A stretch of DNA of 64,000 nt from Nitrospirota bacterium (GTDB taxonomy: Bacteria > Nitrospirota > Thermodesulfovibrionia > Thermodesulfovibrionales > UBA9159), in contig JAMCQB010000049.1 in the NCBI GenBank assembly GCA_023382175.1, forward strand, positions 2,888 through 66,887, given 5' to 3'. This document shows positions 5,510 through 25,134 of this stretch, in pieces (positions within the stretch are counted from its first letter, which is position 1; each line of letters opens with the position of its first letter). The position numbers were made by a program, and so were the translations under genes. A model generated the notes under the pieces. It was not told where the DNA came from and did not search any database. It worked only from the letters and a program-made list of their open reading frames with translations.

Positions 5510-5554
5510 AATTAACGTTTCTTTCATATCCTTGTAACAATTTAAAGATAAGAT
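5510..5554 (+). promoter_or_regulatory. Pho-box-like promoter
   Basis: AATTAAC gttt CTTTCAT atcc TTGTAAC, then 10 bp, then TAAGAT (5549-5554). It lies 50 bp upstream of the ferredoxin/AOR operon. Confidence 0.5.
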
Positions 5555-6357: not shown

Positions 6358-6358
6358 C

Positions 6359-8347
6359 ATGCCAACGAAAAAGATATATGGATGGACAGGCAAGATATTG
6401 AAGATCGACCTTACAACAGGTTTGACTTCCATAATACCCACAATGGACTACGCAGAAAGGTTTGTCGGTGGAAGGGGAATTAATGCAAAACTCCACTTCG
6501 ATGAAGTCCCAGCGAGTGTCGGTGCCTTTGACCCTGAGAACAGGCTGACCGTAATGACCGGCCCGCTCACAGGAACGATTGCTCCTACGTCCGGCAGAGT
6601 GGAAGTCGGCGGAAAATCTCCCCAAACCTATCCTAACGAGAGCTATACGGTATCGTCCTTCGGCGGTTGGTGGGGACCAGAGCTGAAATATGCAGGCTTT
6701 GACGGCCTGATCATCTACGGGAAAGCGCCCAAACCTGTGTACCTCTATATACGCGATGGTAAGATCCAACTGCGCGATGCCGCACATCTATGGGGCAAAG
6801 ATATATTTACAACCCAGGAGATGCTCTGGAAAGAACTTGGCGACGGAAGAAAGCCTCAGGTACTCGCTATCGGTCCGGCGGGTGAAAACATGATCCGCTT
6901 TGCCATCATGATGCATGGCAGTTCATCGGCATCAGGTCAGGGAGGGTTTGGAGGGGTGTGCGGCTCGAAGAACCTCAAGGCGATTGTGGTAAGGGGGACT
7001 GGATATGTTGAAGCGGCAAAACCAAAGGAGTTGATGGACGTTTCCTATGCCATGAACAGGTGGATATACAGAGCAGACCAGAGGCCTGAACAATGGACCA
7101 ACATTGCCAGCTTCCATAGAATCGGGTGGTCATTTTTCCAGGGACAGAAGGTAAAAGGATGGAAGTGGCTCAAGAACTACACGAGAAAGGCCGAGGCATG
7201 CCATGCGTGCCCCCTCGGCTGCAGGGTCTTTTCGAACATAACGGATTCCCAAGGCAGACAGGGATCGGCAAAATGTAACCAGTTCTGGTACGAAAAATAC
7301 GATGTGCAGAGGCACAAGGATATAACAGAGGTTTTTTACAAAGCTGCCAAAATGGCGGATGCCATGGGCGTAAACGGCTTTGAATTGATCGGTATGATAC
7401 CGTGGCTCCAGAAATGTTTTGAAGAAAAGATATTTACTAGGGAAGATACCGGAATAGCCATAGAGGATGTAGGGACATTGGAGTTTGCTGAGAAGCTTCT
7501 CAAGATGATCACCTACAAAGAGGGATTCGGGAAAATTCTGTCGGAGGGTTCACCGAGGGCAGCTGATATCATAGGGAGAGGGAGTCAGAAACATTTACCC
7601 CATATGAATCGGGGTTTTGCCCATCACTGGGACCCCCAACTCTGGTCTCCGCAGGCTCTCTTCTGGGCCATGGAGACGCGGCATCCCGTCAGCAGTATCC
7701 ATGCCATGTACTGGGTATTCAGAATGTATGTGCAGGAACTCTGGCCTGCTGCGGGATTTGCATCTTCCGCTGATGTGGTCGCCTGGAGCAGGGAACTGTT
7801 CGGAACAGACAAGGCAATCGATTATAGTGATGAGAACTTCTATGATCCCGTTCATGCCACAGTCGCAAAGTGGATGCGTGAGTATGATGTGGCGCGGCGG
7901 AGCATGATAGTCTGTTCCTATGGTCCGACACCGCTTTTCTTCAGTTCCTATTCATCGGCGCCGCACTACACCATCCCCCTTCGCTCACCCGACCTTGAGA
8001 GTCGTCTCTTCAGCCTCGTCACGGGCAGCGATCTGGTGCCTGACGGCGCCGCCCTGATTGCGGCAGGACAGCGAATCATCAACGTGGAGCGTGTCATTGC
8101 AGCCCGAGAAGGGAGAACCAGGGAGCACGACACCCTTGCAGACTACCTTTTCACGAAGAAGAAGAAAGGCAAGGTCACCGGCCCCGGCGGAAAAGCAATT
8201 GCTGTAGAGCGAGCGATCGACAGGACAAAATTCGAATCTCTCAGGAATGAATACTACAGGATAAACGGGTGGGACGCCGCAAAAGGGCATCCCAGGCGGG
8301 AGACACTCGATGCACTGAATCTAAAAGACATTTCCGTGGCGGTATAA
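6359..8347 (+). CDS. aor: aldehyde:ferredoxin oxidoreductase (AOR) family tungsto/molybdopterin enzyme
   Basis: N-terminal GWTGKILKIDL...GGRG...TGPLTGT...GENMIRFA...GSKNLKAIVVRG and the CHACPLGC cluster motif are typical of AOR. The start was moved to ATG 6359, behind GGAGGA and after the upstream stop. Confidence 0.85.
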   Translation: MPTKKIYGWTGKILKIDLTTGLTSIIPTMDYAERFVGGRGINAKLHFDEVPASVGAFDPENRLTVMTGPLTGTIAPTSGRVEVGGKSPQTYPNESYTVSSFGGWWGPELKYAGFDGLIIYGKAPKPVYLYIRDGKIQLRDAAHLWGKDIFTTQEMLWKELGDGRKPQVLAIGPAGENMIRFAIMMHGSSSASGQGGFGGVCGSKNLKAIVVRGTGYVEAAKPKELMDVSYAMNRWIYRADQRPEQWTNIASFHRIGWSFFQGQKVKGWKWLKNYTRKAEACHACPLGCRVFSNITDSQGRQGSAKCNQFWYEKYDVQRHKDITEVFYKAAKMADAMGVNGFELIGMIPWLQKCFEEKIFTREDTGIAIEDVGTLEFAEKLLKMITYKEGFGKILSEGSPRAADIIGRGSQKHLPHMNRGFAHHWDPQLWSPQALFWAMETRHPVSSIHAMYWVFRMYVQELWPAAGFASSADVVAWSRELFGTDKAIDYSDENFYDPVHATVAKWMREYDVARRSMIVCSYGPTPLFFSSYSSAPHYTIPLRSPDLESRLFSLVTGSDLVPDGAALIAAGQRIINVERVIAAREGRTREHDTLADYLFTKKKKGKVTGPGGKAIAVERAIDRTKFESLRNEYYRINGWDAAKGHPRRETLDALNLKDISVAV

Positions 8348-9908: not shown

Positions 9909-11090
9909 ATGAAAAAAAGTATTTGGCAGGCGATGAGCAGCATAGCTATTTCATTAATAATATCACTTGTATCTGTGTCCCCCTCCTTTTCTGGAGAACG
10001 GTTGCTCGATAACCATAAGGAAGTCAAGAATATCATCTTCATGGTTCCTGACGGTATGGGCTTGGCCGATGTAACAGCGGCCCGCATCTATAAGAACGGT
10101 ATCGACGGCGCTCCTCTCTACTTCGAGACCCTGGAAGAGATCGGATACCAGAGAACATATTCAGCCGACAACACGATTACCGATTCAGCGGCTGCGGGCT
10201 CGGCTTGGGCTTGCGGAGAGAAGTTCGACAATGGTGAAATCTGCTACCACAGCGACGGGCGCCCTTACAACCCCAGCATTCTCGAATTGGCGAAGAGTCG
10301 AGGCAGGTCAACAGGGCTTGTGGCTACTTCCACAATCACACACGCCACTCCTGCGGTCTTTGGCGCCCATGTGAAGTCTCGTGGCTGCGAAAACGAAATA
10401 GCCTGTCAGTATATTGAGATGACAAGACCTGATGTGGTGCTCGGTGGCGGCGTATCAAAGTTCAATTCCACAAAACCAGACAAATGCGGCACCGCCGGCG
10501 ACTTCATCTCGGAAGCTTTGAATGAAGGGTATAAAGTTGTGTACACGAAAGAGGAAATGGAAAGCGCAGTATCGAGCGACACAACAAAACTCCTCGGACT
10601 TTTCAATAGCGGCGGCATGACCCCGGAATATCTCAGAACTCCCGGCCTTACTGAACCGAGACTGCCGGAGATGGCAAAAGCCGCTCTTAACATCCTCGAA
10701 AGAAATAAGCAAGGTTTCTTTGTAATGATCGAAGGTTCGCAGATTGACTGGGGCAATCACGCCAATAATCTGCAGTATCAAATCGGGGAAACCCTTGCCT
10801 TTGACGAGGCTGTGAAGGTCGTTCTCGATTGGATTAACGCAAGGCAGGAGAGGAAAGAGCACACTCTTCTCATTGTTGTCCCGGATCATGAAACCGGCGG
10901 CTTTGCCATCAACGGAAATGAAGACGTTCCTGCATTGGGACAATTTGTGCCGGGCTGGACCACAAGTGGTCATACAGGCACAGATACTGTCATATGGAGC
11001 CAGGGACCCGGCAGTCATACACTGGGCAGAGCCCTTGATAATACTAACCTTTATTGGATAATGAGGGAATCTTTAAAGGACAAAGAATAG
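9909..11090 (+). CDS. phoA: alkaline phosphatase (PhoA family), secreted
   Basis: Signal peptide, an active-site region DSAAAG(S/T) (here TDSAAAGSAWA), and DWGNHAN and DHETGG motifs. Confidence 0.85.
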   Translation: MKKSIWQAMSSIAISLIISLVSVSPSFSGERLLDNHKEVKNIIFMVPDGMGLADVTAARIYKNGIDGAPLYFETLEEIGYQRTYSADNTITDSAAAGSAWACGEKFDNGEICYHSDGRPYNPSILELAKSRGRSTGLVATSTITHATPAVFGAHVKSRGCENEIACQYIEMTRPDVVLGGGVSKFNSTKPDKCGTAGDFISEALNEGYKVVYTKEEMESAVSSDTTKLLGLFNSGGMTPEYLRTPGLTEPRLPEMAKAALNILERNKQGFFVMIEGSQIDWGNHANNLQYQIGETLAFDEAVKVVLDWINARQERKEHTLLIVVPDHETGGFAINGNEDVPALGQFVPGWTTSGHTGTDTVIWSQGPGSHTLGRALDNTNLYWIMRESLKDKE

Positions 11091-12637: not shown

Positions 12638-13078
12638 ATGCGCTTATTCAAGAAAGTCATAGATATAATCGTCAAGCTGATGATTCCCCTTGTAATCCTC
12701 GCTCTGATGATAGGGATTGCAAGGATATTCCTTGATTTGAGAGAGGTTTTCAAGAGTTCGACCATAGCCGGCGGTTTTGACATCATGGTGACGAATATCC
12801 TGTCGATGTTCGTCATCATAGAACTTCTTAAAGGGATCATAGAATATTTTGAGATACACAGGGTGAAGATTACCTTTATTACGGATGCAACATTGGTTTT
12901 TCTTCTCAGGGAAGTCATGATCGGCATATATCAACATAAAATGGGCTGGACTGAAATAATTTCAATTGCAGCGCTGCTCATCGTCATCGGCGGTATAAGG
13001 ACCATGGCTATTGTCTATTCGCCGGACAAGAGCAAGGAGGTGGCTGTCCATGAGCAAGGAACTGATCGAGAGAATTGA
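12638..13078 (+). CDS. psiE: phosphate-starvation-inducible PsiE-like membrane protein
   Basis: 146 aa with four TM segments. The central FVIIELLKGIIEYF...ATLVFLLREVMI pattern is similar to PsiE. Confidence 0.6.
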   Translation: MRLFKKVIDIIVKLMIPLVILALMIGIARIFLDLREVFKSSTIAGGFDIMVTNILSMFVIIELLKGIIEYFEIHRVKITFITDATLVFLLREVMIGIYQHKMGWTEIISIAALLIVIGGIRTMAIVYSPDKSKEVAVHEQGTDREN

Positions 13079-13602: not shown

Positions 13603-14829
13603 ATGGATCAGCTTTGTGGCGAATCGCCTCAGGTTGGAAAACTGATTACATCCCGTGAACACCTGCAACCGGATGTTGTTGTCAGAGATGTGGCAGATCG
13701 CTTTTTCAAGTCTTCTGAACTTGATGCGCTGGCCCTTGTTGAGGGGAGAAATCCTCTTGGGCTTGTTACTAGGCCGAAGTTCTTCTTCACGGTGTTCAGG
13801 AGATACGGATTCGAACTCTATGGAAGGAAGCCGATCATTACTATCGCCGATACGGCGCCGCTTCTGATGCATGAGGACGAAAGACTTGATGTCGCGATAG
13901 ACAAGGCGCTGGAGCGGCCCCCTCAGGACGTCTACGACGATATTGTTGTGGTGAATGAGTCCGGCTCATACGCAGGGCTGCTCTCCGTAAAACAGATGGT
14001 AATTCAACAAAGCACTGTGCTCGCAAATAATATCATCCAAAAAGAAATGGTGCAGGCAAAGGCAAAAGAGATAGAGAGGATGAGTGAGTTAAGGTCCCGG
14101 TTTATAGCCCATGTCACCCATGAACTCAGATCGCCGGTGAATGCGATCATAGGACTGGCAGAACTCATACAGGTATCATCCCGGAAGGGTTATATGGAGC
14201 AGATGAAGGACCGCCTCGCGCTTCTCATGTCCAGTGCAACCAACCTCCGGGCTATTGTGACAAACATTCTTGACCTTTCAAAGATTGAGGCCGGAAAGAT
14301 GGAAGTGATAACGGAACAATTCAACGTGGTGACCCTCCTCAACGAGGCGGCGGAAACAACCCGCGTCCTGGTCGGAAATAAGCCGGTTAATGTGGAAGTG
14401 ATTGCGCATGAAGACCCGTTGTTTATGGTTTCCGATCCCGTTAAGATACGGCAGATACTGACCAACCTCCTAAGTAATGCGGCAAAATTTACAGAAAAAG
14501 GCAAGATTCTCATATCGCTCGGCCTTGAAGGAAGCAGGGTGAGAATTGTTGTGAGCGATACGGGGATAGGGATAAGAGAAAATGAGATGGACAAATTGTT
14601 CGTGGCCTTCAGTCAACTGGAAGATACGATGACCAAGAGACACGAGGGAACGGGACTTGGATTGACTATCACCAAGAACTTACTAACCATCTTAGGGGGT
14701 AAGATCACCGTGGCGAGCAATTTTGGGGAAGGAACGTCGTTTACGGTTTTTTTCCCTTTAAATCATATGACAAAGGAGGATAGTTCAGATGGAAGGCAAG
14801 AGAGACAAAAAGATGGTACTGATCATTGA
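13603..14829 (+). CDS. cytoplasmic sensor histidine kinase (CBS-like N-terminal module, HisKA, HATPase_c)
   Basis: H-box FIAHVTHELRSP, N-box LLSNAAKFT, and G-boxes DTGIGI and GTGLGL. No TM segments are present. Confidence 0.85.
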   Translation: MDQLCGESPQVGKLITSREHLQPDVVVRDVADRFFKSSELDALALVEGRNPLGLVTRPKFFFTVFRRYGFELYGRKPIITIADTAPLLMHEDERLDVAIDKALERPPQDVYDDIVVVNESGSYAGLLSVKQMVIQQSTVLANNIIQKEMVQAKAKEIERMSELRSRFIAHVTHELRSPVNAIIGLAELIQVSSRKGYMEQMKDRLALLMSSATNLRAIVTNILDLSKIEAGKMEVITEQFNVVTLLNEAAETTRVLVGNKPVNVEVIAHEDPLFMVSDPVKIRQILTNLLSNAAKFTEKGKILISLGLEGSRVRIVVSDTGIGIRENEMDKLFVAFSQLEDTMTKRHEGTGLGLTITKNLLTILGGKITVASNFGEGTSFTVFFPLNHMTKEDSSDGRQERQKDGTDH

Positions 14830-15178
14830 TGATGACGTGAAACATCTCCTCACTGCGAAGGGTCTTTTGGAGAATATGGGATATGAGGTACGCATACATC
14901 ATTTTGCATTCGGAGCTACTAATGCGGTGAGAGAGACAAAACCGGATCTTGTTTTGCTTGATATGAATATGCCCGGCCTCTCAGGTGAAAGGCTTTCGAA
15001 ACTGCTCCTTTCGAATGGCAAAACGAAGGACATTCCTATTGTATTCTATTCCTCCAATGATGAAGACAACTTGAGGAAGGCCGTGGTCGAATACGGCGTA
15101 AAGGGTTACATCGCCAAAGGAGATATCTTTGAGTTGCGAAAAAAAGTCGCGAGCTATTTGGAGTCGCCGATTGGTTGA
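14789..15178 (+). CDS. single-domain response regulator (receiver only)
   Basis: VLIIDDD, DLVLLDMNMPG and a C-terminal K (KGYIAK) are receiver motifs. An RBS (AAGGAGG) precedes it. It overlaps the kinase 3' end. Confidence 0.85.
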   Translation: MEGKRDKKMVLIIDDDVKHLLTAKGLLENMGYEVRIHHFAFGATNAVRETKPDLVLLDMNMPGLSGERLSKLLLSNGKTKDIPIVFYSSNDEDNLRKAVVEYGVKGYIAKGDIFELRKKVASYLESPIG

Positions 15179-15296
15179 CGGGCACTGCCCTGACGGAAAT
15201 ACTGGAAGTCGTTGTCTCCAGGTCTTACCCCGTGCAACGGCGCCTGCGAAGAACGCCTGAGAAGGAGAAAGCACATACCGGAAGGAGGTGAGCGAA

Positions 15297-15461
15297 ATGT
15301 GTCCAAGTTTTAATAGGCCGATTTGTGAAGTGGCGGGTATCGAACCGGAAAGAATACACTGCACCGATAAAAACGCCTGCATGGGAGAATGGGAAAAGTG
15401 CCCGGTCTTCATAGCCCAATTTTTTGTGGAGGCAGGCATAGCATTTGACAGAGTTGCATAG
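15297..15461 (+). CDS. small cysteine protein, paralog C2 (54 aa, below the ORF-track cutoff)
   Basis: Hand translation gives MCPSFNRPICEVAGIEPERIHCTDKNACMGEWEKCPVFIAQFFVEAGIAFDRVA. A GGAGGTGAGCGAA RBS precedes it. The C-terminal C-x6-CPVF matches the family. Confidence 0.55.
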   Translation: MCPSFNRPICEVAGIEPERIHCTDKNACMGEWEKCPVFIAQFFVEAGIAFDRVA

Positions 15462-15500: not shown

Positions 15501-15535
15501 AAGAGACCCGGGAAGATTTTCGGGTCTCTTTATTA
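15501..15535 (+). terminator. intrinsic terminator
   Basis: AGAGACCCG / CGGGTCTCT stem followed by TTATT. Confidence 0.55.
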
Positions 15536-15551
15536 CAATTCTGTTACAAAA

Positions 15552-15596
15552 AATTAACCTGGCTGTAATAATCCTGTAACAAAATAGTTGTATCCT
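15552..15596 (+). promoter_or_regulatory. Pho-box-like promoter
   Basis: AATTAAC ctgg CTGTAAT aatc CTGTAAC, then 10 bp, then TATCCT (15591-15596). The geometry and -10 hexamer are the same as at pstS. Confidence 0.6.
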
Positions 15597-15616
15597 TGAT
15601 ACTAAGGAGGATAAGA

Positions 15617-15832
15617 ATGCATCTAAAAAGTGGAGCGATCTGTCAATTTCTGAAAGGGGGTTCTGACGGAGCTCAGTGCAGCGTGGTCGGCAGGTTCATC
15701 AGGCTCATGGAAGACGCCGACATCCGGCTCTGTATGGGCAGACACCATGAGGCATGCTCATACTATGTGCTCTCATTACGGGGACTGGCTCTTAGGGCTG
15801 CGGATCCTGATACTGCATTAGGCACGCGGTAG
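15617..15832 (+). CDS. small four-cysteine protein, paralog D
   Basis: ATG 15617 follows AAGGAGG. The Cys pattern is C-x11-C-x17-C-x7-C (ICQF...AQCS...RLCMGRHHEACSYY). Confidence 0.5.
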   Translation: MHLKSGAICQFLKGGSDGAQCSVVGRFIRLMEDADIRLCMGRHHEACSYYVLSLRGLALRAADPDTALGTR

Positions 15833-15870
15833 AATGTTCCGTCTTTCCTATAAAAGGTGCCCCACCGTGT

Positions 15871-16197
15871 ATGCTTAACGAATTGACGACACAATCTGCA
15901 ACAGGAATTGAGGAGATGAGATGTCCCTCTTGCGATTCCGATGCTATCTATAAGTATGGAAGGGCATGGACAGGAAAACAGAGGTTTCTCTGCATGATGT
16001 GCGGGATGCAATTTACCGGCAATGCCGGGAAGGCAACGGTGAAAGGCAAACCGGCTTGTCCGGAATGCGGGAAGCCCATGAACCTCTATAAGATAGAGGG
16101 TATTGTTGTGCGGTTCAGATGTTCGGGCTATCCAAAATGTAGAACATTCAAAAAATATAGGATGAAGGAGGAGCCAGATGAGCCATTACATCCATAA
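15871..16197 (+). CDS. double zinc-ribbon protein (InsA-like CxxC ribbon plus topoisomerase-type C4 finger), putative DNA binding
   Basis: CPSCDS...GKQRFLCMMCGMQF resembles transposase/InsA-type ribbons. CPECGKPM...FRCSGYPKC resembles the Topo I C4 finger. ATG 15916 is an alternative start. Confidence 0.5.
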   Translation: MLNELTTQSATGIEEMRCPSCDSDAIYKYGRAWTGKQRFLCMMCGMQFTGNAGKATVKGKPACPECGKPMNLYKIEGIVVRFRCSGYPKCRTFKKYRMKEEPDEPLHP

Positions 16198-16549
16198 CGT
16201 CCCGGGAAGATTGAGAGTTAAAAGTCCGGCAGTTAAGAAGAACACGGATGCCGCGGTTGAAATCCGAAAGATTTTGAGCGCCATGAACGGTATTGCAACG
16301 GTCGACATTAACCTCATCACCGGCAGTGTTCTCATTAACTACAATCCGGCGACCGTACAATACAAAGACATTGTAGGCACGCTCCAAAGGAAGGGCTACT
16401 TTGATACGTCAAAGGCGATAACAAATGATCAATACATCCAGAGAGCCGCTTCGAAAGCAGGCAATATCGTCGGAAAGGCTATCTTCGGTACATTTGTGGA
16501 AAAGGCATTCGAAGGGTCGGCTTTGTCATTAATAACATTCTTGATCTAA
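16178..16549 (+). CDS. HMA2-type (cysteine-less heavy-metal-associated-like) domain protein with hydrophobic C-terminal tail
   Basis: H..PGRLRVK...N.ITGSVLINY is the motif shared by three other proteins in this window. It overlaps the upstream ORF. Confidence 0.6.
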   Translation: MSHYIHNVPGRLRVKSPAVKKNTDAAVEIRKILSAMNGIATVDINLITGSVLINYNPATVQYKDIVGTLQRKGYFDTSKAITNDQYIQRAASKAGNIVGKAIFGTFVEKAFEGSALSLITFLI

Positions 16550-16569
16550 TTCTAGATGTCTTCACTCGC

Positions 16570-16890
16570 TCACTTTTCTGCTTCAAGATTTTCTGCCTTG
16601 AGTTTTAGTTCGCTAATTTGACAAAGTATTTTTTCAGAAAACTCAGACTCGCCGAGATCTTTATACTCGGGCATTAATTTCCGCACATCCGGATAGTCTT
16701 TAAATAAAAGTTCCAACATGTTGGATTGTGACCTTGCCAGATCAATATAGGACTTCTTTAGCGCAATATATTTTCCTTTATACGTTGCTAAGTCATTCTG
16801 CGGTTTTTTTTGAAGAGCAATACTCACTATACTTACGATCACGATCAATAGAGCAAAGAATAAATGCGTCCAAACACTTTTGTTTATCAT
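16570..16890 (-). CDS. hypothetical N-terminally membrane-anchored coiled-coil protein
   Basis: One N-terminal TM segment followed by a charged helical region. No family was recognised. Confidence 0.4.
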   Translation of the reverse strand: MINKSVWTHLFFALLIVIVSIVSIALQKKPQNDLATYKGKYIALKKSYIDLARSQSNMLELLFKDYPDVRKLMPEYKDLGESEFSEKILCQISELKLKAENLEAEK

Positions 16891-17004
16891 GTTGCCCTTT
16901 CTTTATTGAAGGTCATATTATCCATGTTTTCAGAGAGTTCAAGCGATTCTTTCTTTTTCTTGTACAGCTCAAGGTATACATCAATCGATATGCCGTCTCG
17001 ATTG

Positions 17005-17721
17005 TCATTTTCCTTCACGAACTCTTTCTGCAAAATAGACGGGCAAACCGGATTCTCCAATGGCCGAAGCCACTCTTTCTAAGTCGTAGGGCGCCCTTAT
17101 AAAATCGGTTTTCACGCCTTCGGGCAGACATTCGACGAGGGTCAGGCATGCCCGTGTATCCCCATCCTTCGGCTTTCCGACGCTGCCGGCATTGATGAAT
17201 ACCTTGCCGTCCACATCCCTCCTGTATGGAATATGGGTATGCCCGTAAATCAAGATACCCGCCTTTGCCTTGTCCGCCATTTCGAGAAAAAATTTATCTT
17301 TCCGGTCCTGGTGCCAATAGAGGTTATTCTTCAGAGGCGTAGCATGGAATATCTTGACCGTTCTTCCATGACAGGAGAAAGCGATCTCGAACGGGAGGCT
17401 TCTCATATATTCCTTACTTTTCCCCGAGGCATGTTTTTTTGTCCACTCAAAGGCCAGCGCCGCCATCTCCTCCTGAAGGGGATTCTCATATCTGCACCCG
17501 CAATGCTCCTTATTATTGCCTACGGCTTCATCATAGTTGCCCTGTACTCCCTCGATTTTATGTTCCACAAGGAAATCGACTACCTCATTCACAAATGGCG
17601 CATAGCCTCCGACGTCGCCGAGGTGATACAGCTTATCCACTTTCTGCAAAACGGCTGTCTCACATACCGCCTTTAATGCCTCGATATTGCCGTGAATGTC
17701 TCCTAGTATTCCGAGTTTCAT
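17005..17721 (-). CDS. metallophosphoesterase (calcineurin-like, YfcE/MJ0936-like)
   Basis: GDIHGN, GDVGGY, GNYD and GHTH motifs. Confidence 0.85.
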   Translation of the reverse strand: MKLGILGDIHGNIEALKAVCETAVLQKVDKLYHLGDVGGYAPFVNEVVDFLVEHKIEGVQGNYDEAVGNNKEHCGCRYENPLQEEMAALAFEWTKKHASGKSKEYMRSLPFEIAFSCHGRTVKIFHATPLKNNLYWHQDRKDKFFLEMADKAKAGILIYGHTHIPYRRDVDGKVFINAGSVGKPKDGDTRACLTLVECLPEGVKTDFIRAPYDLERVASAIGESGLPVYFAERVREGK

Positions 17722-17790
17722 CCGCCGATCTCCTTATACCAACAAAGTAATTGCATCGCAGCTCGCGTTCTTTACTATGATTGCTCATCA

Positions 17791-18054
17791 TCAGGTGCGA
17801 GACTTGCCTCTTCTGACGCTCAACACGTATTCAACCTTTCTGCTTACCAATATAGGCAAGAAATCTTTGACCCTTGCATTTCTTTTGAAACCCTTCAGCA
17901 CTAACTCATAAAGCTTCCCCACTTCTTCGAGTGACGCGCCGATACGCCCTGCAACTGTCTGCATGGCGTTTAGATGGCGCAGTCTTTCGGGTTCATCTTC
18001 ATAAAGCGCATGAAGATGAACATTCTCATCCTGCGAGGTACCCTTTACAGCCAT
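17791..18054 (-). CDS. small hypothetical protein, possibly DUF3562-like
   Basis: 87 aa. The C-terminal LYE...ARVKDFLPILVSRKV pattern is reminiscent of DUF3562, recalled from memory only. Confidence 0.35.
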   Translation of the reverse strand: MAVKGTSQDENVHLHALYEDEPERLRHLNAMQTVAGRIGASLEEVGKLYELVLKGFKRNARVKDFLPILVSRKVEYVLSVRRGKSRT

Positions 18055-18115
18055 GGCAATTTCTTAAGAACGGTATTCATTAAGATCACGGTGACCAATT
18101 TCCATACTCGTGTCT

Positions 18116-19315
18116 TCAACCTTTCAACTCCCGTATTCTGTCTGTCAATTCCCAGGGCAGCCCTATATCCATTCTGCCCACATGTCCATATACTGCAAGC
18201 CTTCTGTAAAAACCGCCCTTAACAATGGAGGGCAGGTACCGCAGATTGAACTGTTTTATTATTCCCGCAAGTCGAAAGTCAAAATGCCTCTCAATGAGTT
18301 CTGCAATCTTCTCATCAGAGGTCTTCCCTGTGCCAAAGGTCTCTACCTGAACACTCACCGGCCTTGAAAGACCTATAGAATAGCTGAGATGTATCTCGCA
18401 TTCCTCTGCAAGCCCTGCTGCTACCACATTCTTTGCCGCATATCTGGCGGCATATGCGCCTATCCTGTCTATACGCATGGGGTCTTTTCCGCTCAGGGCA
18501 GAGCCGCTGTGCCGGGAATATTCTCCATAGGTGTCTATGGCATTCTTTCTCCCTGTTAAGCCTGAATGGACAGAAGGACCACCAACTATGAACGGCCCGT
18601 CGGGATTTATGAATATCCTCGTGTTTGTATCAGGTTTGATCTCCTCATCGGCGAATACAGGGTTTACAACAGCAGCCCTTATATCGTCATGCAGTTTCTT
18701 TAAATCAGGACCGCCTGATGCTAACGGTTTGTTCTGGCTCGCGATCACTGTAACACTGTGAATACTGTAAGGCCTGCCATCCCTGTATTCCACTCCTACC
18801 TGTGTTTTCCCGTCAGGTGCAAGATAGGGGAGTATCTTCTGGAGCCTGACAGAGGTCAGTTTTCTTGCAAGCCTGTGAGCGAGCCAGATGGGAAGGGGCA
18901 TAAAAGATGCGGTCTGGTTGCAGGCAAAGCCGAAGACAGTGACCTGATTCCTGACAGGGATATTATCCATCTCCTCCTCCGATAGCTCTCTCTCATCAAG
19001 GCAGCAATGCTCATCTGAAGGCAATTCCTTGAGGCTTGTTACAATGCTGCAGGTCTTGCCGTTAAAGGCATGCTGGTCATAGCCGATCTGGTTTATAACC
19101 TGTCTTGCTATATACGGGAAATCTACAATGGCATTGGATTCAAACCTTGCTGCTATAAAAACTATGGCTGTGGATACAGCACACTCAGCAATGACCCTTG
19201 AAAATGGGTCCTGCTGAAGGAAATGATCTACAAGGGCATCGCTTATCTGGTCACAGAGCTTGTCAGGGTGTCCTTCTGTTACAGATTCTGATATAAAAAT
19301 AAAGTCCTTTTTCAT
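18116..19315 (-). CDS. S-adenosylmethionine synthetase-like protein (divergent MetK paralog)
   Basis: The N-terminal SESVTEGHPDKLCDQISDA and GLTGRK..DTYG...SGKDP..DR.GAYAARY are clearly MetK-like. The GAGDQG signature region is replaced. Confidence 0.8.
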   Translation of the reverse strand: MKKDFIFISESVTEGHPDKLCDQISDALVDHFLQQDPFSRVIAECAVSTAIVFIAARFESNAIVDFPYIARQVINQIGYDQHAFNGKTCSIVTSLKELPSDEHCCLDERELSEEEMDNIPVRNQVTVFGFACNQTASFMPLPIWLAHRLARKLTSVRLQKILPYLAPDGKTQVGVEYRDGRPYSIHSVTVIASQNKPLASGGPDLKKLHDDIRAAVVNPVFADEEIKPDTNTRIFINPDGPFIVGGPSVHSGLTGRKNAIDTYGEYSRHSGSALSGKDPMRIDRIGAYAARYAAKNVVAAGLAEECEIHLSYSIGLSRPVSVQVETFGTGKTSDEKIAELIERHFDFRLAGIIKQFNLRYLPSIVKGGFYRRLAVYGHVGRMDIGLPWELTDRIRELKG

Positions 19316-19329
19316 TTAGCACCTCATTG

Positions 19330-19407
19330 CTTAAGGTTAAGGTTGAGGCTAAGGTTAAGAATTACAAATTTTTAATCTCTCTTAACCTAAACCTTAACCT
19401 CAACCTG
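19330..19407. repeat. hexamer-based palindrome (TTRAGG)n / (CCTYAA)n between the ATPase stop and the metK-like start
   Basis: ttaagg ttaagg ttgagg ctaagg ttaaga, then a loop, then tcttaacc taaacc ttaacc tcaacc. The right arm includes the ATPase stop codon. Confidence 0.6.
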
Positions 19408-22400
19408 TTCTTTTTGTGCCTTCATTCACTAACAATGGCATCACCGCACTGCCTCCAATCACAATACCATCGAGGATACCTATGGGAGCCAATCCCAAAA
19501 GATTTCGGAGCCCTGGTAGCGCCATGGCAAGAAGCTGTACGGCAAAGGAACCTCCGAGGGCGATATTGAGATATTTATTGGGCAGTAGTTTTTCCTTATC
19601 AAATATAGAATGCTTCTCGGAGCGGCAACTTATGGCGTGGAGAAGCTGACCTGCGGTAAGGCTCATAAAAGCCATGGCGCTTGCCTTCTGTCCCATACCG
19701 TATCTCATCACGCCATATCCATAGGCCCCCAGGGTCCCCGCGGAAATCACTGCGGATTCAAATGTGATTCTTTTGAAATCCGACGTCTTGACGATCAGTT
19801 CTTCAGGATCCCGTGGAGGCTGGCTCAGCACATCAGGTTCAGGGGGTTCGAGGGCAAGGGCAAGACCCGGCGCTATATCGGACATAAGGTTGATCCACAG
19901 CAGCTGTATCGCACTGAGAGGTTGACCGAGCCCCCCTGCAATAGCAGTGAACATAACCATGATCTCGCTCAGATTTGTCGACAGCAGGAAATGGACGGAT
20001 TTCCTGATGTTGTTATAGATGGTCCTTCCCTGGCTTATGGCGATGATCATCGTTGCGAGTTCATCGTCTTCGATGACAACGTCTGCGACTTCCCGGGCAA
20101 CATCGGTGCCCACATGTCCCATTGCGATGCCTATATCCGCTGCTTTGAGGGCAGGGCCGTCATTAATACCATCTCCCGTCATGGCCACAATCTTTCCCGC
20201 ACCCTGGAGCGCCTGAACTATCTGGAGCTTATGGGCAGGACTCACGCGCGAAAAAACATGCACCCTCTCGCAGAGCGCCTTCATCACTTCAGGGTCGATA
20301 CTGGCAAGGTGAGCGGAATCAAGGATCTCGAGTTGTTCGCCATTGCTGAGGTTCAATTCCTTTCCTATGGCATAGGCGGTCGGGCTCTGGTCGCCGGTTA
20401 TCATGACCGTCTCAATCCCTGCCCTGTGAAATTCCCCTATCAACCCCTTCACGCCTCCTCTGACCGGATCAGCCATTCCTACAAGACCCAGCCACACAAG
20501 ATTATCGCTGAAATCGACATCATTATTAAGAAACGCGCCCGGTTCACCATCACTGAGAGAGTACGCCACCCCAAGGACACGGAGAGCCTCCCCGGCCATA
20601 CGCTCATTTTCCGTCTCTATGGCGAGCCGGTCCTCATCGGTCAAGGGAATCTTCCTGCCATCCTTCATATGCCACCTGCACATCGACAGGACCTCGTTCG
20701 GGCTCCCCTTTACGGCAACAAGCGCGGAATGGTTGCCTGCGCGGTGAAGTGTATACATGTAGTTGCGGTTTTCAGAACGATGTTGAATGTTCACCAGGAG
20801 AAATTTTTCCCTGAGTCTTACCACATCGACCCCCGAACTCAATGCTATGTGGATCAGCGCATTCTCCGTAGGAGAACCGTTGACCGCATATTCACCATGC
20901 TGTCCGATCACTTCACTTTCATTGCAGAGAGCCGCTATGTGAATGAGTCTCAGGAGTTCATCGAAGAGATATACACTCGCCGGTTCACCGGACGCAAAAA
21001 ACTGCCCGTCGGATACAGTGAAGCGCCTCATCCCACTAAATGCCGTGACAACAGACATCCTGTTCAGGGTGATCGTTCCTGTTTTGTCGAGGCATATGGT
21101 GTGGATAGAGCCGAGGGTTTCGACCGCTTCGAGTCGCCGTATGAGGACGTTGTGCCTCCGCATATTTCTGATGCCCAGGGCTAAGGTTGTGGTCGCCACT
21201 GTCGGAAGTCCTTCGGGGACGGCGGCGATGGCAAGGGATATGGAGGTTTTGAGCATCTGTAAAAAACCGTATCCACGAAGAAGTCCCGTAACAAAGACCA
21301 GGCCGCAGACAGCGCCGCAGATCAATACCAGTTGGCTGCCCATCATGTCCAGTTGGCGCTCCATAGGGGTTTCAGGAGGTCTTGCTTCACCGACGAGGAT
21401 TTGTATCCTTCCGATCTCGGTAAACCTCCCTGTCGCAACGGCAACAGCAATCCCCTGTCCTCCGACAACAAGTGTCCCCATGTATACCATGTTCGTCCTG
21501 TCAGCGAGGGGGATGTTGTCCCTCTCACCCTCTCCCGCCAGGGGAGAGGGTTTATAAATTTGTTTCCCTCCCCCTTGATGGGGGAGGGTGAGGGAGGGGG
21601 TGGCTGTTGTTTTAACCACAGGCATACTCTCGCCGGTGAGTGCTGACTCATCGATGCTCAGGTGATTGGCTTCAATGAGCCTTGCGTCTGCCGCAACATA
21701 GCTGCCGGGCCTGAGCAGAAGGAGGTCTCCGGGCACTACGTTTTCTGCGCCTATCTCTTTCAGACGACCATCCCGCAGCACTATAGCAGAGGGTCTCACA
21801 AGATTCTTCAGCGAATGGATCGTTTTTTCGGTCTGGCTCTCGGTTGTGTAACCGATGGCGGCATTGATGAGGACTACGCCCATGATCACCACCGCATCTG
21901 CAAGACCGCCGGTGAGGAGCGAAATGCCCGCAGCAGCTCCCAGGAGGGCGACAGGAAGGGATTTGAACTGGTTGATGAACATACTCAGCCCTGAACGCGG
22001 AACAGATTCAGGAAGGACATTCGGACCGTATTTTTTGAGATGTGCCCCGGCGAGGTCGCCGGATAAGCCCGAATCTTTCGACGTGCCGAGAGATTGGAGA
22101 ACCTCGGTCGCCTCAGCAAGATGCCACGGCTCGACTCTCTGGTCCTCGGACCGGATAATGCTTTTCCTTAATTTTCTCCTGCTTCTGAGCTCTCCGCGTT
22201 CCGGGGTCAGGACTTCGCCTGGCCTTGCTTTTTCCGGAAGCGGGTTGTGGACCTTTGCATGTCGAACTTCTTTCCCGGAGCCTGCTGCCACCCCTGGAAC
22301 GGGTAATGAAAAACAAGATGACTGCCTTCCGGCATTTTTTTTGTGAGCTTCGACAACGTCCGCAATGAGCAGGGCTATTGAATGGTGGGGGTTGTCTGAA

Positions 22401-22570
22401 TTAAAGAAAACAAGCACACTCCCGGTCAAAGAGTTTACCGAGAATTTCAGTATCTCTTTATGAGACGACAGACCCCCCTCTATCTCTCTCTTGAGCCTCT
22501 CAGAGCGGTATAGCCCATCTACCTTAAATCGCGCCCTGCCTTTTACAGCAGCATGTATGGGCCGAACCAC
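19400..22570 (-). CDS. P2-type cation-translocating P-type ATPase with N-terminal HMA2-type domain
   Basis: TGES, PEGLP, DKTGTIT, MITGDQ and GDGINDGPALK motifs. The TM5/TM6 motifs STNLSEI and INLMSD resemble SERCA-like Ca-site residues. The N-terminal KGRARFKV...N.LTGSVLVFF is an HMA2-type domain. Confidence 0.9.
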   Translation of the reverse strand: MVRPIHAAVKGRARFKVDGLYRSERLKREIEGGLSSHKEILKFSVNSLTGSVLVFFNSDNPHHSIALLIADVVEAHKKNAGRQSSCFSLPVPGVAAGSGKEVRHAKVHNPLPEKARPGEVLTPERGELRSRRKLRKSIIRSEDQRVEPWHLAEATEVLQSLGTSKDSGLSGDLAGAHLKKYGPNVLPESVPRSGLSMFINQFKSLPVALLGAAAGISLLTGGLADAVVIMGVVLINAAIGYTTESQTEKTIHSLKNLVRPSAIVLRDGRLKEIGAENVVPGDLLLLRPGSYVAADARLIEANHLSIDESALTGESMPVVKTTATPSLTLPHQGGGKQIYKPSPLAGEGERDNIPLADRTNMVYMGTLVVGGQGIAVAVATGRFTEIGRIQILVGEARPPETPMERQLDMMGSQLVLICGAVCGLVFVTGLLRGYGFLQMLKTSISLAIAAVPEGLPTVATTTLALGIRNMRRHNVLIRRLEAVETLGSIHTICLDKTGTITLNRMSVVTAFSGMRRFTVSDGQFFASGEPASVYLFDELLRLIHIAALCNESEVIGQHGEYAVNGSPTENALIHIALSSGVDVVRLREKFLLVNIQHRSENRNYMYTLHRAGNHSALVAVKGSPNEVLSMCRWHMKDGRKIPLTDEDRLAIETENERMAGEALRVLGVAYSLSDGEPGAFLNNDVDFSDNLVWLGLVGMADPVRGGVKGLIGEFHRAGIETVMITGDQSPTAYAIGKELNLSNGEQLEILDSAHLASIDPEVMKALCERVHVFSRVSPAHKLQIVQALQGAGKIVAMTGDGINDGPALKAADIGIAMGHVGTDVAREVADVVIEDDELATMIIAISQGRTIYNNIRKSVHFLLSTNLSEIMVMFTAIAGGLGQPLSAIQLLWINLMSDIAPGLALALEPPEPDVLSQPPRDPEELIVKTSDFKRITFESAVISAGTLGAYGYGVMRYGMGQKASAMAFMSLTAGQLLHAISCRSEKHSIFDKEKLLPNKYLNIALGGSFAVQLLAMALPGLRNLLGLAPIGILDGIVIGGSAVMPLLVNEGTKRTG
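21519..21600. repeat. double-hairpin GC-rich palindromic element inserted in frame in the ATPase gene
   Basis: CCCTCTCCC-gccag-GGGAGAGGG (21528-21550) and CCCTCCCCC-ttgat-GGGGGAGGG (21566-21588). It is translated as ...LTLPHQGGGKQIYKPSPLAGEGERD... Confidence 0.65.
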
Positions 22571-22585
22571 ACCTTTTATCCCTTT

Positions 22586-23266
22586 TTACCCTTCGTTCTC
22601 GGGGTTTTTTTCTGATACGCCTGCTTTCGGAGCCGTTGCTTCTTTTCGAGCGCCTGTAACGGCTGGTCTCGGTTTCGGCAGGGCGGCGCCTGCAACCTCC
22701 TTCACTCCTTCAACAACCCCAACAAGCATATCCTTGACAGCCTTTACCGCGGTATTCCCTATAGTTCCGGCAGCCTCGATCGCCCCTCCCACAGCCACCT
22801 TTGCCACATCTTCCACATTCCCGCCGACTTCCTTGGTTGCTTCGATGACCCCGTCAACCGCCCTCCGCGCAACCATGGCAACATCAGCGCCTACCTCAGC
22901 AGCACCTTTGACTGCGCCCTTTACCGTCTGGCTGGCAACGGTCACGACATCTCCGCCGACATCGCTCACTCCCATGACGACACCCTTCGCAACGCTCTTT
23001 GTGCTTAAAATGAGGCCTGTGCCGACCTCTTCCGTCGCCTGAATCGCACCCTTTACCACGTCTCTTGTAATGGTAACTGCTTCATTGGCCACTGAACCAG
23101 TGGCTCTCAGAGTGTTGGAAACGGTATTCCTCACCAGGCTGACGATTTCAGCCTCGATCTCGTTGATGCCCTTGAGGCTGCTCACGACACCTTCTTTTAC
23201 TGCTGTTCCTGCCTTGCCGATTCCTTCGCCCATCGGGCTTTCCTCTATGACATGCTCATTAGACAT
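22586..23266 (-). CDS. tandem 22-residue repeat protein (about 7-8 repeats), unknown function
   Basis: The start is set at ATG 23266, behind GAGGAGG. The repeats are TRDVVKGAIQATEEVGTGLILS / TKSVAKGVVMGVSDVGGDVVTV / ASQTVKGAVKGAAEVGADVAMV / ARRAVDGVIEATKEVGGNVEDV / AKVAVGGAIEAAGTIGNTAVKA, and so on. Confidence 0.6.
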   Translation of the reverse strand: MSNEHVIEESPMGEGIGKAGTAVKEGVVSSLKGINEIEAEIVSLVRNTVSNTLRATGSVANEAVTITRDVVKGAIQATEEVGTGLILSTKSVAKGVVMGVSDVGGDVVTVASQTVKGAVKGAAEVGADVAMVARRAVDGVIEATKEVGGNVEDVAKVAVGGAIEAAGTIGNTAVKAVKDMLVGVVEGVKEVAGAALPKPRPAVTGARKEATAPKAGVSEKNPENEG

Positions 23267-23310
23267 GGGTAACCTCCTCTTTTTCACAAACGTGGGTAGC
23301 TGTTTATCAT

Positions 23311-23333
23311 AAAAACGGAAGGGAAATCCCTTC
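23311..23333 (-). terminator. possible weak terminator/attenuator between the HMA2-TM gene and the repeat-protein gene
   Basis: On the minus strand, GAAGGG-atTT-CCCTTC followed by CGTTTTTAT. Confidence 0.35.
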
Positions 23334-23346
23334 TTCCTCCAGACCG

Positions 23347-23829
23347 TTATGCTGCGACCCCGGCGCCTTGCCCTGACTTGAGGAATATGTTAAATGCGTA
23401 CCAGAAGGCGGCATACCATGGGAGCGCAGTAAGATTTCCTACGCTCATTTGGTATATTCCGGCGCCGAGGAGCAGGAGAAAAGCCAGCCCTCCGATGTCT
23501 ATCTCGCCCCCGGTAAGCGCCACAAGCTGAGTATTCATCCCTTTAAAGGTTTCCGATACCCGCTGCTGCAACCTTCTCGGAGAGGCGTTCAGTCCTTGAA
23601 GGCTGAAAAGATTACCGGCCATGGCGTATCCCGCAATTCTTTCACTATCCAGATCGTGCATCACGAGCAAACTGCCGGTTAAGGCATTGACTTCAACGGT
23701 CTTGATGCCTTCAAAACCGGAAAATCGTTCCTTCAAGCCTCCAAAAAATGCACGATCACCCTTTTTTGAAGGTATCCTGATCCTCAACCTTCCTCTGGTC
23801 CGATGGCTTATATAAGCGCGCGGGAGCAT
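23347..23829 (-). CDS. HMA2-type domain protein with C-terminal transmembrane segments
   Basis: The N-terminal H.TRGRLRIRIP...N.LTGSLLVMH motif and the C-terminal GGLAFLLLLGAGIY...ALPWYAAFWYAFNIFL. Its start overlaps the upstream stop (TAATG). Confidence 0.6.
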   Translation of the reverse strand: MLPRAYISHRTRGRLRIRIPSKKGDRAFFGGLKERFSGFEGIKTVEVNALTGSLLVMHDLDSERIAGYAMAGNLFSLQGLNASPRRLQQRVSETFKGMNTQLVALTGGEIDIGGLAFLLLLGAGIYQMSVGNLTALPWYAAFWYAFNIFLKSGQGAGVAA

Positions 23830-24119
23830 TAAGCGTTTGGTTCGCCTTCCGGCGCAACCGGGGCAGATGCGGCTTTTTCCGCCTCCGAGATCTCAGCTTT
23901 TACCTCGGCTACCAGGTCCTCAACCACCTCACCTACTTCAGCAAAAGTCTCCTTGCCTTTTTCAAAGAGGATAAGTCCTCCCTTTATCGCTGCCTTTGCC
24001 ACCGGTTTTGCCACACCTGCAATAACGGGGAGCACGGCAGGAGCAAGGACAGCCGCCCCTATGCCAATAGCAAGCCCTGTCACAACATTTCCCTTCAGGA
24101 CATCATCAAAAAGTCCCAT
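23829..24119 (-). CDS. DUF5132-like small membrane protein
   Basis: MGLFDDVLKGNVVTGLAIGIGAAVLAPAVLPVIAGVAKPVAKAAIKGGLILFEKG followed by an acidic tail. This matches my recollection of DUF5132 proteins, which are often adjacent to HMA2/P-type ATPase genes. Confidence 0.55.
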   Translation of the reverse strand: MGLFDDVLKGNVVTGLAIGIGAAVLAPAVLPVIAGVAKPVAKAAIKGGLILFEKGKETFAEVGEVVEDLVAEVKAEISEAEKAASAPVAPEGEPNA

Positions 24120-24211
24120 TCCGAGCCTCCTTTCTTTTGTATATCTTTACCATATCACTTTCATCATTTAGCGTCCATGAGTTCTTTCATTACTTGCCTA
24201 CAAGAAGACAA

Positions 24212-24267
24212 ATTTCATTGAAATTTAACGGTAGCTTCATAAGGACGTAACAGTACTGTGGTTTACT
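24212..24267 (+). promoter_or_regulatory. Pho-box-like promoter (four phased boxes)
   Basis: ATTTCAT tgaa ATTTAAC ggta GCTTCAT aagg ACGTAAC, then 10 bp, then TTTACT (24262-24267). Confidence 0.55.
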
Positions 24268-24300
24268 ATGCCCAGGATCAGACGAAAGAGGATGACTGCT

Positions 24301-24564
24301 ATGATGCAGTACAAGATTTTACATCATGTCCCAGGCCGTATCAGGATTGAGGTGCCCTCCATTAAGGGACGTTCCCTGAAGGCTCTAAAGCGATTATCAG
24401 ATATTCCCGTTCCGTGCGGTATAGAGGACATTCGCCCTAATCCCTTGACAGGAAGCCTCTTGATAAAGTATGACCCAGGCCGGATAAATATCGTTTCCTA
24501 TCTGAGGGACATGGCATCCAGGGACGTGATAAACAATGTACTCGACAAAGGAGGTTTGTTATGA
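24301..24564 (+). CDS. stand-alone HMA2-type domain protein
   Basis: HHVPGRIRIEVP...NPLTGSLLIKYDP. The start was moved to ATG 24301 because ATG 24268 abuts the predicted -10. The RBS is AAGAGGA. Confidence 0.6.
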   Translation: MMQYKILHHVPGRIRIEVPSIKGRSLKALKRLSDIPVPCGIEDIRPNPLTGSLLIKYDPGRINIVSYLRDMASRDVINNVLDKGGLL

Positions 24565-24770
24565 ACAGCACCCATAACATTGCATCTATGATACACCTCA
24601 CCAATGAATTGGAATTGCAGTGCCCCTACTTTGATGCATCCGACGTCTGCAATGCCTCGCTCTCCTCATTATTGCCATCGCCGACTATGAGGGTGAATTT
24701 CTGTAACAGCGAAGACTATGACAATTGCCCCATATTCCTGGCTAAGGTCTTAAGAAGGAGGCGGAAATGA
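24561..24770 (+). CDS. small four-cysteine protein, paralog E
   Basis: ATGA start/stop overlap with the upstream gene and an AAGGAGG RBS. The Cys pattern is C-x8-C-x17-C-x7-CPIF. Confidence 0.55.
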   Translation: MNSTHNIASMIHLTNELELQCPYFDASDVCNASLSSLLPSPTMRVNFCNSEDYDNCPIFLAKVLRRRRK

Positions 24771-24958
24771 CATGTCTCGACTATGTGTCCGAAGATTTGA
24801 GATGTCTCAGGGGTATCCCCGTTACTCCAAGGTTCAGCAGCTTCTTCTGTAAAGGAAAACATGAGAAATGTCCTTTGATCATATGGGAGAAATCTCAGAC
24901 AAAGAACCCGGAGATGTTACGGCCGAAATCATTTATCAATATATGGAGGGAACCATGA
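24767..24958 (+). CDS. small four-cysteine protein, paralog F
   Basis: ATGA overlap and an AAGGAGG RBS. The Cys pattern is C-x9-C-x14-C-x6-CPLI. Confidence 0.5.
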   Translation: MTCLDYVSEDLRCLRGIPVTPRFSSFFCKGKHEKCPLIIWEKSQTKNPEMLRPKSFINIWREP

Positions 24959-25134
24959 AATGTCCGCATCTGGCAAAATGGGTCGTGTCTGTCTGTAAGG
25001 CTGTGAGTAATACTTATGTCCCCAGTAACTTTGAGCTTCAAGAGTACTGTAAGACAAAAAGCCATAAGAAATGCCCTTTCTTTTTAAAGAATACAGCCGT
25101 GAAAAGAGAAGCGGATGGCCTGATCTCAGCATAG
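24955..25134 (+). CDS. small four-cysteine protein, paralog G
   Basis: ATGA overlap with F and a GGAGGG RBS. MKCPHLAKWVVSVCKAV...YCKTKSHKKCPFFL gives the pattern C-x10-C-x17-C-x7-CPFF. Confidence 0.55.
   Translation: MKCPHLAKWVVSVCKAVSNTYVPSNFELQEYCKTKSHKKCPFFLKNTAVKREADGLISA

Follow-up and report, generated by a model that had tools for sequence, protein, structure and literature searches.

A conserved CoBaHMA/DUF5132 accessory module around a predicted Ca2+-ATPase in a Pho-regulon-rich region of a Nitrospirota genome

Between positions 15552 and 25134 of the DNA analysed here (the window, a stretch of 64,000 nucleotides, G000:C112:2888-66887), a P-type ATPase gene lies in a string of minus-strand genes that is bracketed by two plus-strand operons. 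The source is a Nitrospirota metagenome-assembled genome (MAG; 2.85 Mb, 171 contigs, 86.8% complete, GC 0.504). A preliminary description, made from the sequence alone, had proposed an undescribed system at this place, which raises the question of whether these genes belong together, what the ATPase moves and when the genes are expressed. We established the families of the products, the conservation of the genes as a unit and the presence of a PhoB-box-like motif common to pstS and phoB. The cluster is a putative Ca2+-pump system carrying a novel accessory module; it is real, conserved and undescribed, and no papers on this gene cluster were found. The explanation that we favour, with confidence that is about evenly balanced, is a dedicated module for the pumping of Ca2+ (possibly also Mn2+) in the phosphate-starvation (PhoB) regulon, in which the partner proteins would organise the pump in a membrane domain.

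The ATPase, its CoBaHMA domains and its partners

We examined the family of the ATPase and found the Pfam domains E1-E2, Hydrolase and Cation_ATPase N and C, together with an N-terminal HMA_2 domain. The best NCBIfam models were all of Ca-ATPase types (IIA2, IIA1 and IIB), the PMR1-type IIA2_Ca model coming first with 607.7 bits, below its cut-off of 798.3 (TIGR01522), and the SERCA type second. Human SPCA1, Listeria LMCA1 and SERCA were the top PDB matches, and the earlier assignment to SERCA-like P2 ATPases is borne out by these domains, models and structures. An alignment with SPCA1 showed that the DKTGT and the PEGL motif of transmembrane helix 4 (TM4) are present, as are the TM4 E, the TM5 N..E and the TM6 N..D, the presumed Ca2+-site residues by SERCA numbering. 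In TM5, the N and E are three residues apart, at places where SPCA1 has S/A, and we take this pair to be the equivalent of SERCA N768/E771, ligands of Ca2+ site I. From the sequence family and the binding-site residues we infer that the substrate is Ca2+, and the P2A, SERCA/SPCA-like assignment supports the pumping of a divalent cation of the Ca type, as had been suggested.

The same matches bear on an SPCA/PMR1-like pump for Mn2+ (plus Ca2+), serving Mn2+ supply or detoxification with the partners as regulators. This would agree with SPCA1 as the best PDB match, with the PMR1-type model as the best in NCBIfam and with the habitats, since DNA nearly identical to 19400-25134 was found in sediment, mine-tailings, coal, subsurface and mine-drainage metagenomes. 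However, the PMR1 equivalog cut-off was missed (607 vs 798), the TM5 N/E pair is SERCA-like rather than the S/A of SPCA1, and Mn-related genes are absent nearby, which makes a primary role in Mn2+ handling rather improbable. Compared to SPCA1/PMR1 (ATP2C1; the secretory-pathway Ca2+/Mn2+-ATPase), with which it has in common the P2A fold, the PEGL in TM4 and the N, P and A domains, the cluster ATPase is bacterial, scores under the PMR1 cut-off, has the TM5 N/E pair, carries an N-terminal CoBaHMA domain and is encoded in a multi-gene partner cluster. Listeria LMCA1, which is among the best PDB matches, and cyanobacterial PacL are likewise bacterial P2A Ca2+ pumps; to our knowledge, pumps of this LMCA1/PacL type have neither an N-terminal CoBaHMA domain nor dedicated partner proteins.

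The four cysteine-less HMA-like domains noticed earlier within 15.5-25.1 kb are real, and they belong to a named family, CoBaHMA (Pfam PF19991, HMA_2), which the preliminary description had missed; three of the four exceed the Pfam gathering cut-off of 30 bits. CoBaHMA is characterised by an extra strand, beta0, on the ferredoxin-like HMA fold, by basic residues conserved in beta1/beta2 and by a His close to beta0. An alignment of the four copies and a paralog showed that the basic G-R-x-R and the N-x-L-T-G-S are invariant, with a His ahead and no CxxC, so that the longer consensus given before is approximately right. The family was named in work on calcyanin, and the signature is as in calcyanin N-termini (PMC8890360); binding to anionic lipids has been proposed for it, as cited in 10.64898/2025.12.07.689555. 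Here, this recently named domain, a candidate for lipid binding, is found fused to a P-type pump. With the stand-alone CoBaHMA protein as a query against longer proteins, nothing was found.

The HMA superfamily fold, a weak CopZ-like NCBIfam match of the CoBaHMA protein at 16178 and the several small Cys-rich proteins could point to the handling of heavy metals (Zn/Cu), with the HMA domains acting as metal chaperones and the small proteins binding Zn. In contrast to this expectation, the CoBaHMA domains are without CxxC, the Pfam HMA scores are weak and the ATPase is of the P2 (PEGL) and not of the P1B (CPx) type; we regard heavy-metal handling as most improbable, and a P1B-type system was set aside on account of the PEGL P2 pump and the absent CxxC.

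We then compared each window protein by tblastn to 44 loci with close relatives of the ATPase. The order DUF5132, CoBaHMA-TM, ATPase, MetK was present in 30 of the 31 loci with sufficient flanking DNA, in Nitrospirota and Desulfobacterota; the genes are thus conserved as a unit in related genomes, and every ATPase at 51% identity or more has the partner genes. The repeat protein REP was found in 26 loci, mostly of Nitrospirota, the plus-strand operons with CoBaHMA and Cys-rich proteins flank the core in many loci, PstS adjoins the cluster in 10, and CorA follows MetK in several. The nearest relatives of the ATPase are from Thermodesulfovibrionales and other Nitrospirota, followed by Desulfobacterota. 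In a FastTree tree the cluster ATPases form a clade of their own, separate from the Saccharicenans/Aminicenantes P2A ATPases (40% identity), which have no partners and make up a long-branch outgroup. Of 401 Nitrospirota genomes sampled, 65 had DUF5132 and 84 had HMA_2, chiefly those of Thermodesulfovibrionales, and position listings across Nitrospirota genomes place DUF5132 beside a CoBaHMA-TM gene and often beside a CoBaHMA-ATPase too.

The core occurs twice in this MAG: another contig (C60; L001:1-7760) carries part of DUF5132, CoBaHMA-TM, REP, the ATPase and MetK at 83-88% amino acid identity, as well as a CorA-family gene (322 amino acids; TIGR00383, below the cut-off) between MetK and a DUF3562 gene; this second copy is sister to the window copy in the ATPase tree. 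Since an independent metagenome contig covers 15957-26498 unbroken, the gene order did not arise by faulty binning, and a chimeric MAG was ruled out. The core module is also present beyond Nitrospirota, which had escaped the preliminary description: in addition to the Desulfobacterota, direct tblastn found it on the megaplasmid pMVF16-1 of the alphaproteobacterium Microvirga sp. VF16 (L047, NZ_CP069355), where it comprises a CoBaHMA-ATPase (46% identity), CoBaHMA proteins and two genes for DUF5132, though a tblastn of plasmids with DUF5132 as the query gave no match. The Microvirga copy adjoins two genes for CYTH-domain (triphosphate-tunnel) proteins and a DUF445 gene, which hints at a phosphate or polyphosphate link there.

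The gene order and couplings had been described correctly, with TAATG at 23829 joining the DUF5132 gene to the CoBaHMA-TM gene and ATGA overlaps at 24767-24770 (E/F) and 24955-24958 (F/G), and the DUF5132 assignment holds at the Pfam level (Table 1). The periodicity of REP is clear, as had been noticed: its identity autocorrelation is 0.237 at lag 22 and at most 0.153 at other lags, and its alpha-helical hydrophobic moment is 0.40 against a shuffled maximum of 0.255, as for an amphipathic helix. AlphaFold2 modelled REP as all-helical, a series of helices of about 20 residues (pLDDT 68, pTM 0.60); Foldseek with this model matched only designed helical-repeat proteins and no natural structural homolog, and the ESM Atlas returned only unnamed clusters. 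These properties are consistent with a coat on a membrane surface. Some REP homologs elsewhere (P0001, P0005, P0027) are fused to a C-terminal ROS/MucR zinc-finger domain (PF05443) or to an N-terminal CsbD.

The MetK-like paralog proved to be a full member of the MetK family (it passes TIGR01034) and is 43% identical to the housekeeping MetK of the genome. All cluster MetKs have [VA]x[ND]Q[VA]TV in place of the active-site loop GAGDQG, which the housekeeping MetK keeps, and this altered loop suggests a changed activity. The D operon consists of D, the double zinc-ribbon protein ZnR and the CoBaHMA protein at 16178-16549, and the divergent plus-strand operon of the stand-alone CoBaHMA protein HMA24268 (24292-24564), E, F and G. 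D, E, F and G stand as small Cys-rich proteins, their Cys being conserved in relatives; E and G are weakly homologous, and the Cys, His and Pro of these two are invariant across relatives. AlphaFold2 gave no usable fold for the G-family Cys protein (13 homologs, pLDDT 57). The small Cys-rich proteins are likely to bind metal or Zn.

PhoB-box-like motifs and the link to phosphate

The cluster lies within a Pho-regulon-rich stretch, between psiE/phoA and pstSCAB-phoU, and we looked there for PhoB-type promoters. A direct repeat, TGTNACA-N4-TGTNACA with an 11-bp period like that of PhoB boxes, occurs in eight copies in the window at up to two mismatches, compared to 1.22 expected and a maximum of three in 100 shuffles. 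In addition to the tandem sites before the D operon and the perfect copy before pstS (Table 1), copies precede psiE, phoA and the histidine kinase gene (13243). Elsewhere in the genome, a perfect TGTAACA-N4-TGTAACA precedes an OmpR-family gene (C65:7572-8315; L048:173-916:-) whose best NCBIfam model is TIGR02154 (PhoB); autoregulation of PhoB is usual, and the box is consistent with it. Downstream of this probable phoB lie genes for a GntR/PhnF-like regulator and a GH1 beta-glucosidase. Among the relatives, the motif precedes the D homologs in 10 of 17 loci and the HMA24268 homologs in 8 of 32; in some of them, a single near-palindromic site, lying between the two divergent transcription units, is shared by the HMA24268 operon and the DUF5132 core. 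Because the D operon has the motif in common with pstS and phoB, in tandem and identical in form to that at these promoters of the Pho regulon (PhoB/PhoR, pstSCAB-phoU), its putative control by PhoB is well supported. We know of no Pho-regulon member that encodes a comparable Ca2+-ATPase module.

In the reading that we favour, the P2A ATPase would use ATP to move Ca2+ from the cytosol across a membrane, and its N-terminal CoBaHMA domain, a cysteine-free HMA fold with a conserved basic patch, would be the proposed binder of anionic lipids. DUF5132, a putative membrane-inserting hairpin with an amphipathic helix, and CoBaHMA-TM, with its predicted C-terminal anchor, accompany the ATPase everywhere; the additions in Nitrospirota are the soluble CoBaHMA proteins, REP, which may be able to coat membrane surfaces, the small Cys-rich proteins and the divergent MetK. 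The CoBaHMA and the amphipathic or hairpin proteins may both regulate the pump and collect it in a specific lipid domain. At low phosphate, PhoB would turn on the operon D-ZnR-CoBaHMA; in relatives it would act on the divergent CoBaHMA/DUF5132 promoter as well. The Ca2+ would be delivered either to the periplasm or outside, or into an internal compartment, where it could be kept, for instance, as amorphous CaCO3. If this is correct, Ca2+ handling is tied to the phosphate-starvation regulon, a coupling that has not been described for a bacterial Ca-ATPase.

Several points weigh against this explanation. The preliminary description had placed both plus-strand operons at Pho-box-like promoters, which stood for the D operon (sites 15531 and 15564), whereas the HMA24268-E-F-G operon has no PhoB-like site at up to two mismatches in this window. 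It had also reported no Pho box directed toward the minus-strand string; this is true of the window, where the core has no PhoB-like site of its own, and not of some relatives, whose divergent promoter has one. Induction of the core by low inorganic phosphate (Pi) is consequently suggested solely by the relatives and the shared divergent promoter, and the substrate, direction and regulation of the pump are all deduced from sequence. The N-terminal CoBaHMA domain of the window ATPase scores 29.5 bits, just under the cut-off of 30, whereas those of ATPases from other genomes reach 40-47 bits, above it. SPCA-type transport of Mn2+ by the ATPase may occur, the explanation does not account for MetK, ZnR or the small Cys proteins, and the genome is a MAG, 87% complete.

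The phosphate context had led to the proposal that the module buffers or exports Ca2+/Mn2+ freed when polyphosphate is mobilised under Pi starvation, which would fit in that the D operon, at least, appears to be under Pho control. However, a search of the 87%-complete genome for PPK1, PPK2, a CYTH/VTC-like enzyme and an H+-PPase found none of them, so that a polyphosphate store is unlikely, the proposed link to polyphosphate mobilisation finds no support here, and we now give this role very little credence. The acidocalcisome, a polyphosphate-Ca organelle (Ca-ATPase with V-H+-PPase and the polyphosphate polymerase VTC), is similar in having a Ca2+ pump that could load an intracellular compartment; it differs in that H+-PPase, PPK and CYTH/VTC were not found in this genome, while two CYTH genes adjoin the Microvirga copy. 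The supply of Ca2+ to periplasmic Ca-dependent phosphatases was also set aside, as PhoX and PhoD were not found.

Comparison with calcyanin loci

Two rare families of the core are known from another context. At cyanobacterial loci, members of the CoBaHMA and DUF5132 families are neighbours of ccyA on its flanks, this calcyanin gene being a marker of intracellular amorphous CaCO3 (iACC) (PMC8890360; bioRxiv 10.1101/2024.07.07.602159). In Microcystis, ccyA and cax are flanked by genes of both families, which are expressed together with ccyA (bioRxiv 10.1101/2024.07.07.602159), and co-expression in cyanobacteria includes DUF5132 and a CoBaHMA-DUF454 gene (bioRxiv 10.1101/2024.07.07.602159; PMC8890360). 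Furthermore, magnetotactic Nitrospirota (Thermodesulfovibrionales) form iACC without ccyA (PMC12710302; 10.64898/2025.12.07.689555), and multiple iACC pathways may exist (10.64898/2025.12.07.689555). The envelope of the cyanobacterial granules is possibly a lipid monolayer and/or protein, according to PMC8890360, which cites Blondeau 2018.

Compared to ccyA loci, such as that of Microcystis PCC 7806 (two DUF5132 genes, CoBaHMA, CoBaHMA-DUF454, ccyA and cax), the cluster is alike in bringing CoBaHMA, DUF5132 and a Ca2+ transporter together. In contrast, it is without calcyanin or (GlyZip)3, has a P-type ATPase instead of CAX with CoBaHMA fused to the pump, and adds the amphipathic repeat protein, MetK, the Cys-rich proteins and Pho regulation; it is found in Nitrospirota, Desulfobacterota and Alphaproteobacteria rather than in cyanobacteria.

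Because the CoBaHMA/DUF5132 module is common to calcyanin loci, storage of Ca2+ is a serious candidate for the function of the cluster. The pump would load Ca2+ into an internal compartment bounded by a membrane or an envelope, with amorphous CaCO3 or another Ca mineral inside, and REP and the DUF5132 hairpin would shape or coat it; we hold this to be possible though unlikely. Equally tentative is its corollary of a second, calcyanin-independent genetic route, on under phosphate limitation, in Nitrospirota (among them lineages to which known iACC-forming magnetotactic bacteria belong), Desulfobacterota and some Alphaproteobacteria. The co-expressed families beside ccyA, the formation of iACC without ccyA by magnetotactic Nitrospirota and the abundance of Thermodesulfovibrionales among the relatives of the genome speak for such a store, and a granule envelope of monolayer and/or protein, as given in PMC8890360, would suit amphipathic and hairpin proteins. 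However, a P-type pump requires a lumen bounded by a bilayer and not by a monolayer. The cluster contains no GlyZip protein, and ccyA was not identified, the genome not having been searched with a calcyanin model; REP is not GlyZip-like, its 22-residue amphipathic repeat having few GxxxG. If storage is nevertheless the function, the cluster would offer candidates for the genes behind Ca sequestration within the cell, or biomineralization, in bacteria without calcyanin, including the iACC-forming magnetotactic Nitrospirota, whose genetic basis is not known.

Features of the cluster and its surroundings

The coordinates are collected in Table 1. No RNA runs were among the datasets listed for the region 19400-25134.

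Table 1. Features in and around the cluster, with positions in the window.
Feature	Position	Strand	Remarks
phoH-PIN	4002-5285		upstream of cluster
Alkaline phosphatase phoA	9909-11090		upstream of cluster
bacA			upstream of cluster
psiE	12638-13078		upstream of cluster
CBS-histidine kinase and receiver-only response regulator	13603-15178		upstream of cluster
Small 6-Cys protein	15288-15461	+	kept upstream of D operon in relatives; 11 loci
Tandem PhoB-box-like direct repeats before D operon	15531-15581	+	sites 15531, 15564
D, small 4-Cys protein (CP...C...C...C), first gene of D operon	15617-15832	+	conserved in 17 loci
ZnR, double zinc-ribbon protein (CxxC x4)	15871-16197	+	Pfam Zn ribbon; conserved in 18 loci
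CoBaHMA protein with hydrophobic C-terminal tail	16178-16549	+	PF19991 48.7 bits
Metallophosphoesterase, then weakly conserved TM/coiled-coil protein		-	in minus-strand string
DUF3562 small protein	17791-18054	-	in about 12 loci
Cluster-specific MetK subfamily, altered GAGDQG loop	18116-19315	-	always directly downstream of ATPase
Predicted P2A (SERCA/SPCA-like) Ca2+-ATPase with N-terminal CoBaHMA domain	19400-22570	-	1056 aa; Pfam, NCBIfam, PDB matches
REP, amphipathic alpha-helical 22-residue-repeat protein	22586-23287	-	no Pfam family
CoBaHMA-TM protein, full-length HMA_2 member, C-terminal TM helix	23347-23829	-	PF19991 57.8 bits
DUF5132 protein; G/A/P-rich hydrophobic N-terminal hairpin and amphipathic helix	23829-24119	-	Pfam E=4e-14
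Stand-alone CoBaHMA protein (HMA24268), first gene of divergent operon	24292-24564	+	PF19991 33.4 bits
E, small Cys-rich protein (CPY..C..C..CPIFL)	24561-24770	+	
F, small Cys-rich protein	24767-24958	+	ATGA-coupled
G, small Cys-rich protein (KCPHL..C..YC..H.KCPF)	24955-25134	+	ATGA-coupled; E paralog
Perfect PhoB-box-like copy before pstS	25434		
pstS, pstC, pstA, pstB, phoU	25488 (pstS) to 29923		downstream of cluster

The CBS-histidine kinase and response regulator pair also adjoins the cluster in some relatives (L005-L007). Farther upstream, a 4Fe-4S ferredoxin gene and an aldehyde:ferredoxin oxidoreductase (AFOR) gene lie at 5605-8347, with a Pho-box-like site upstream at 5522.

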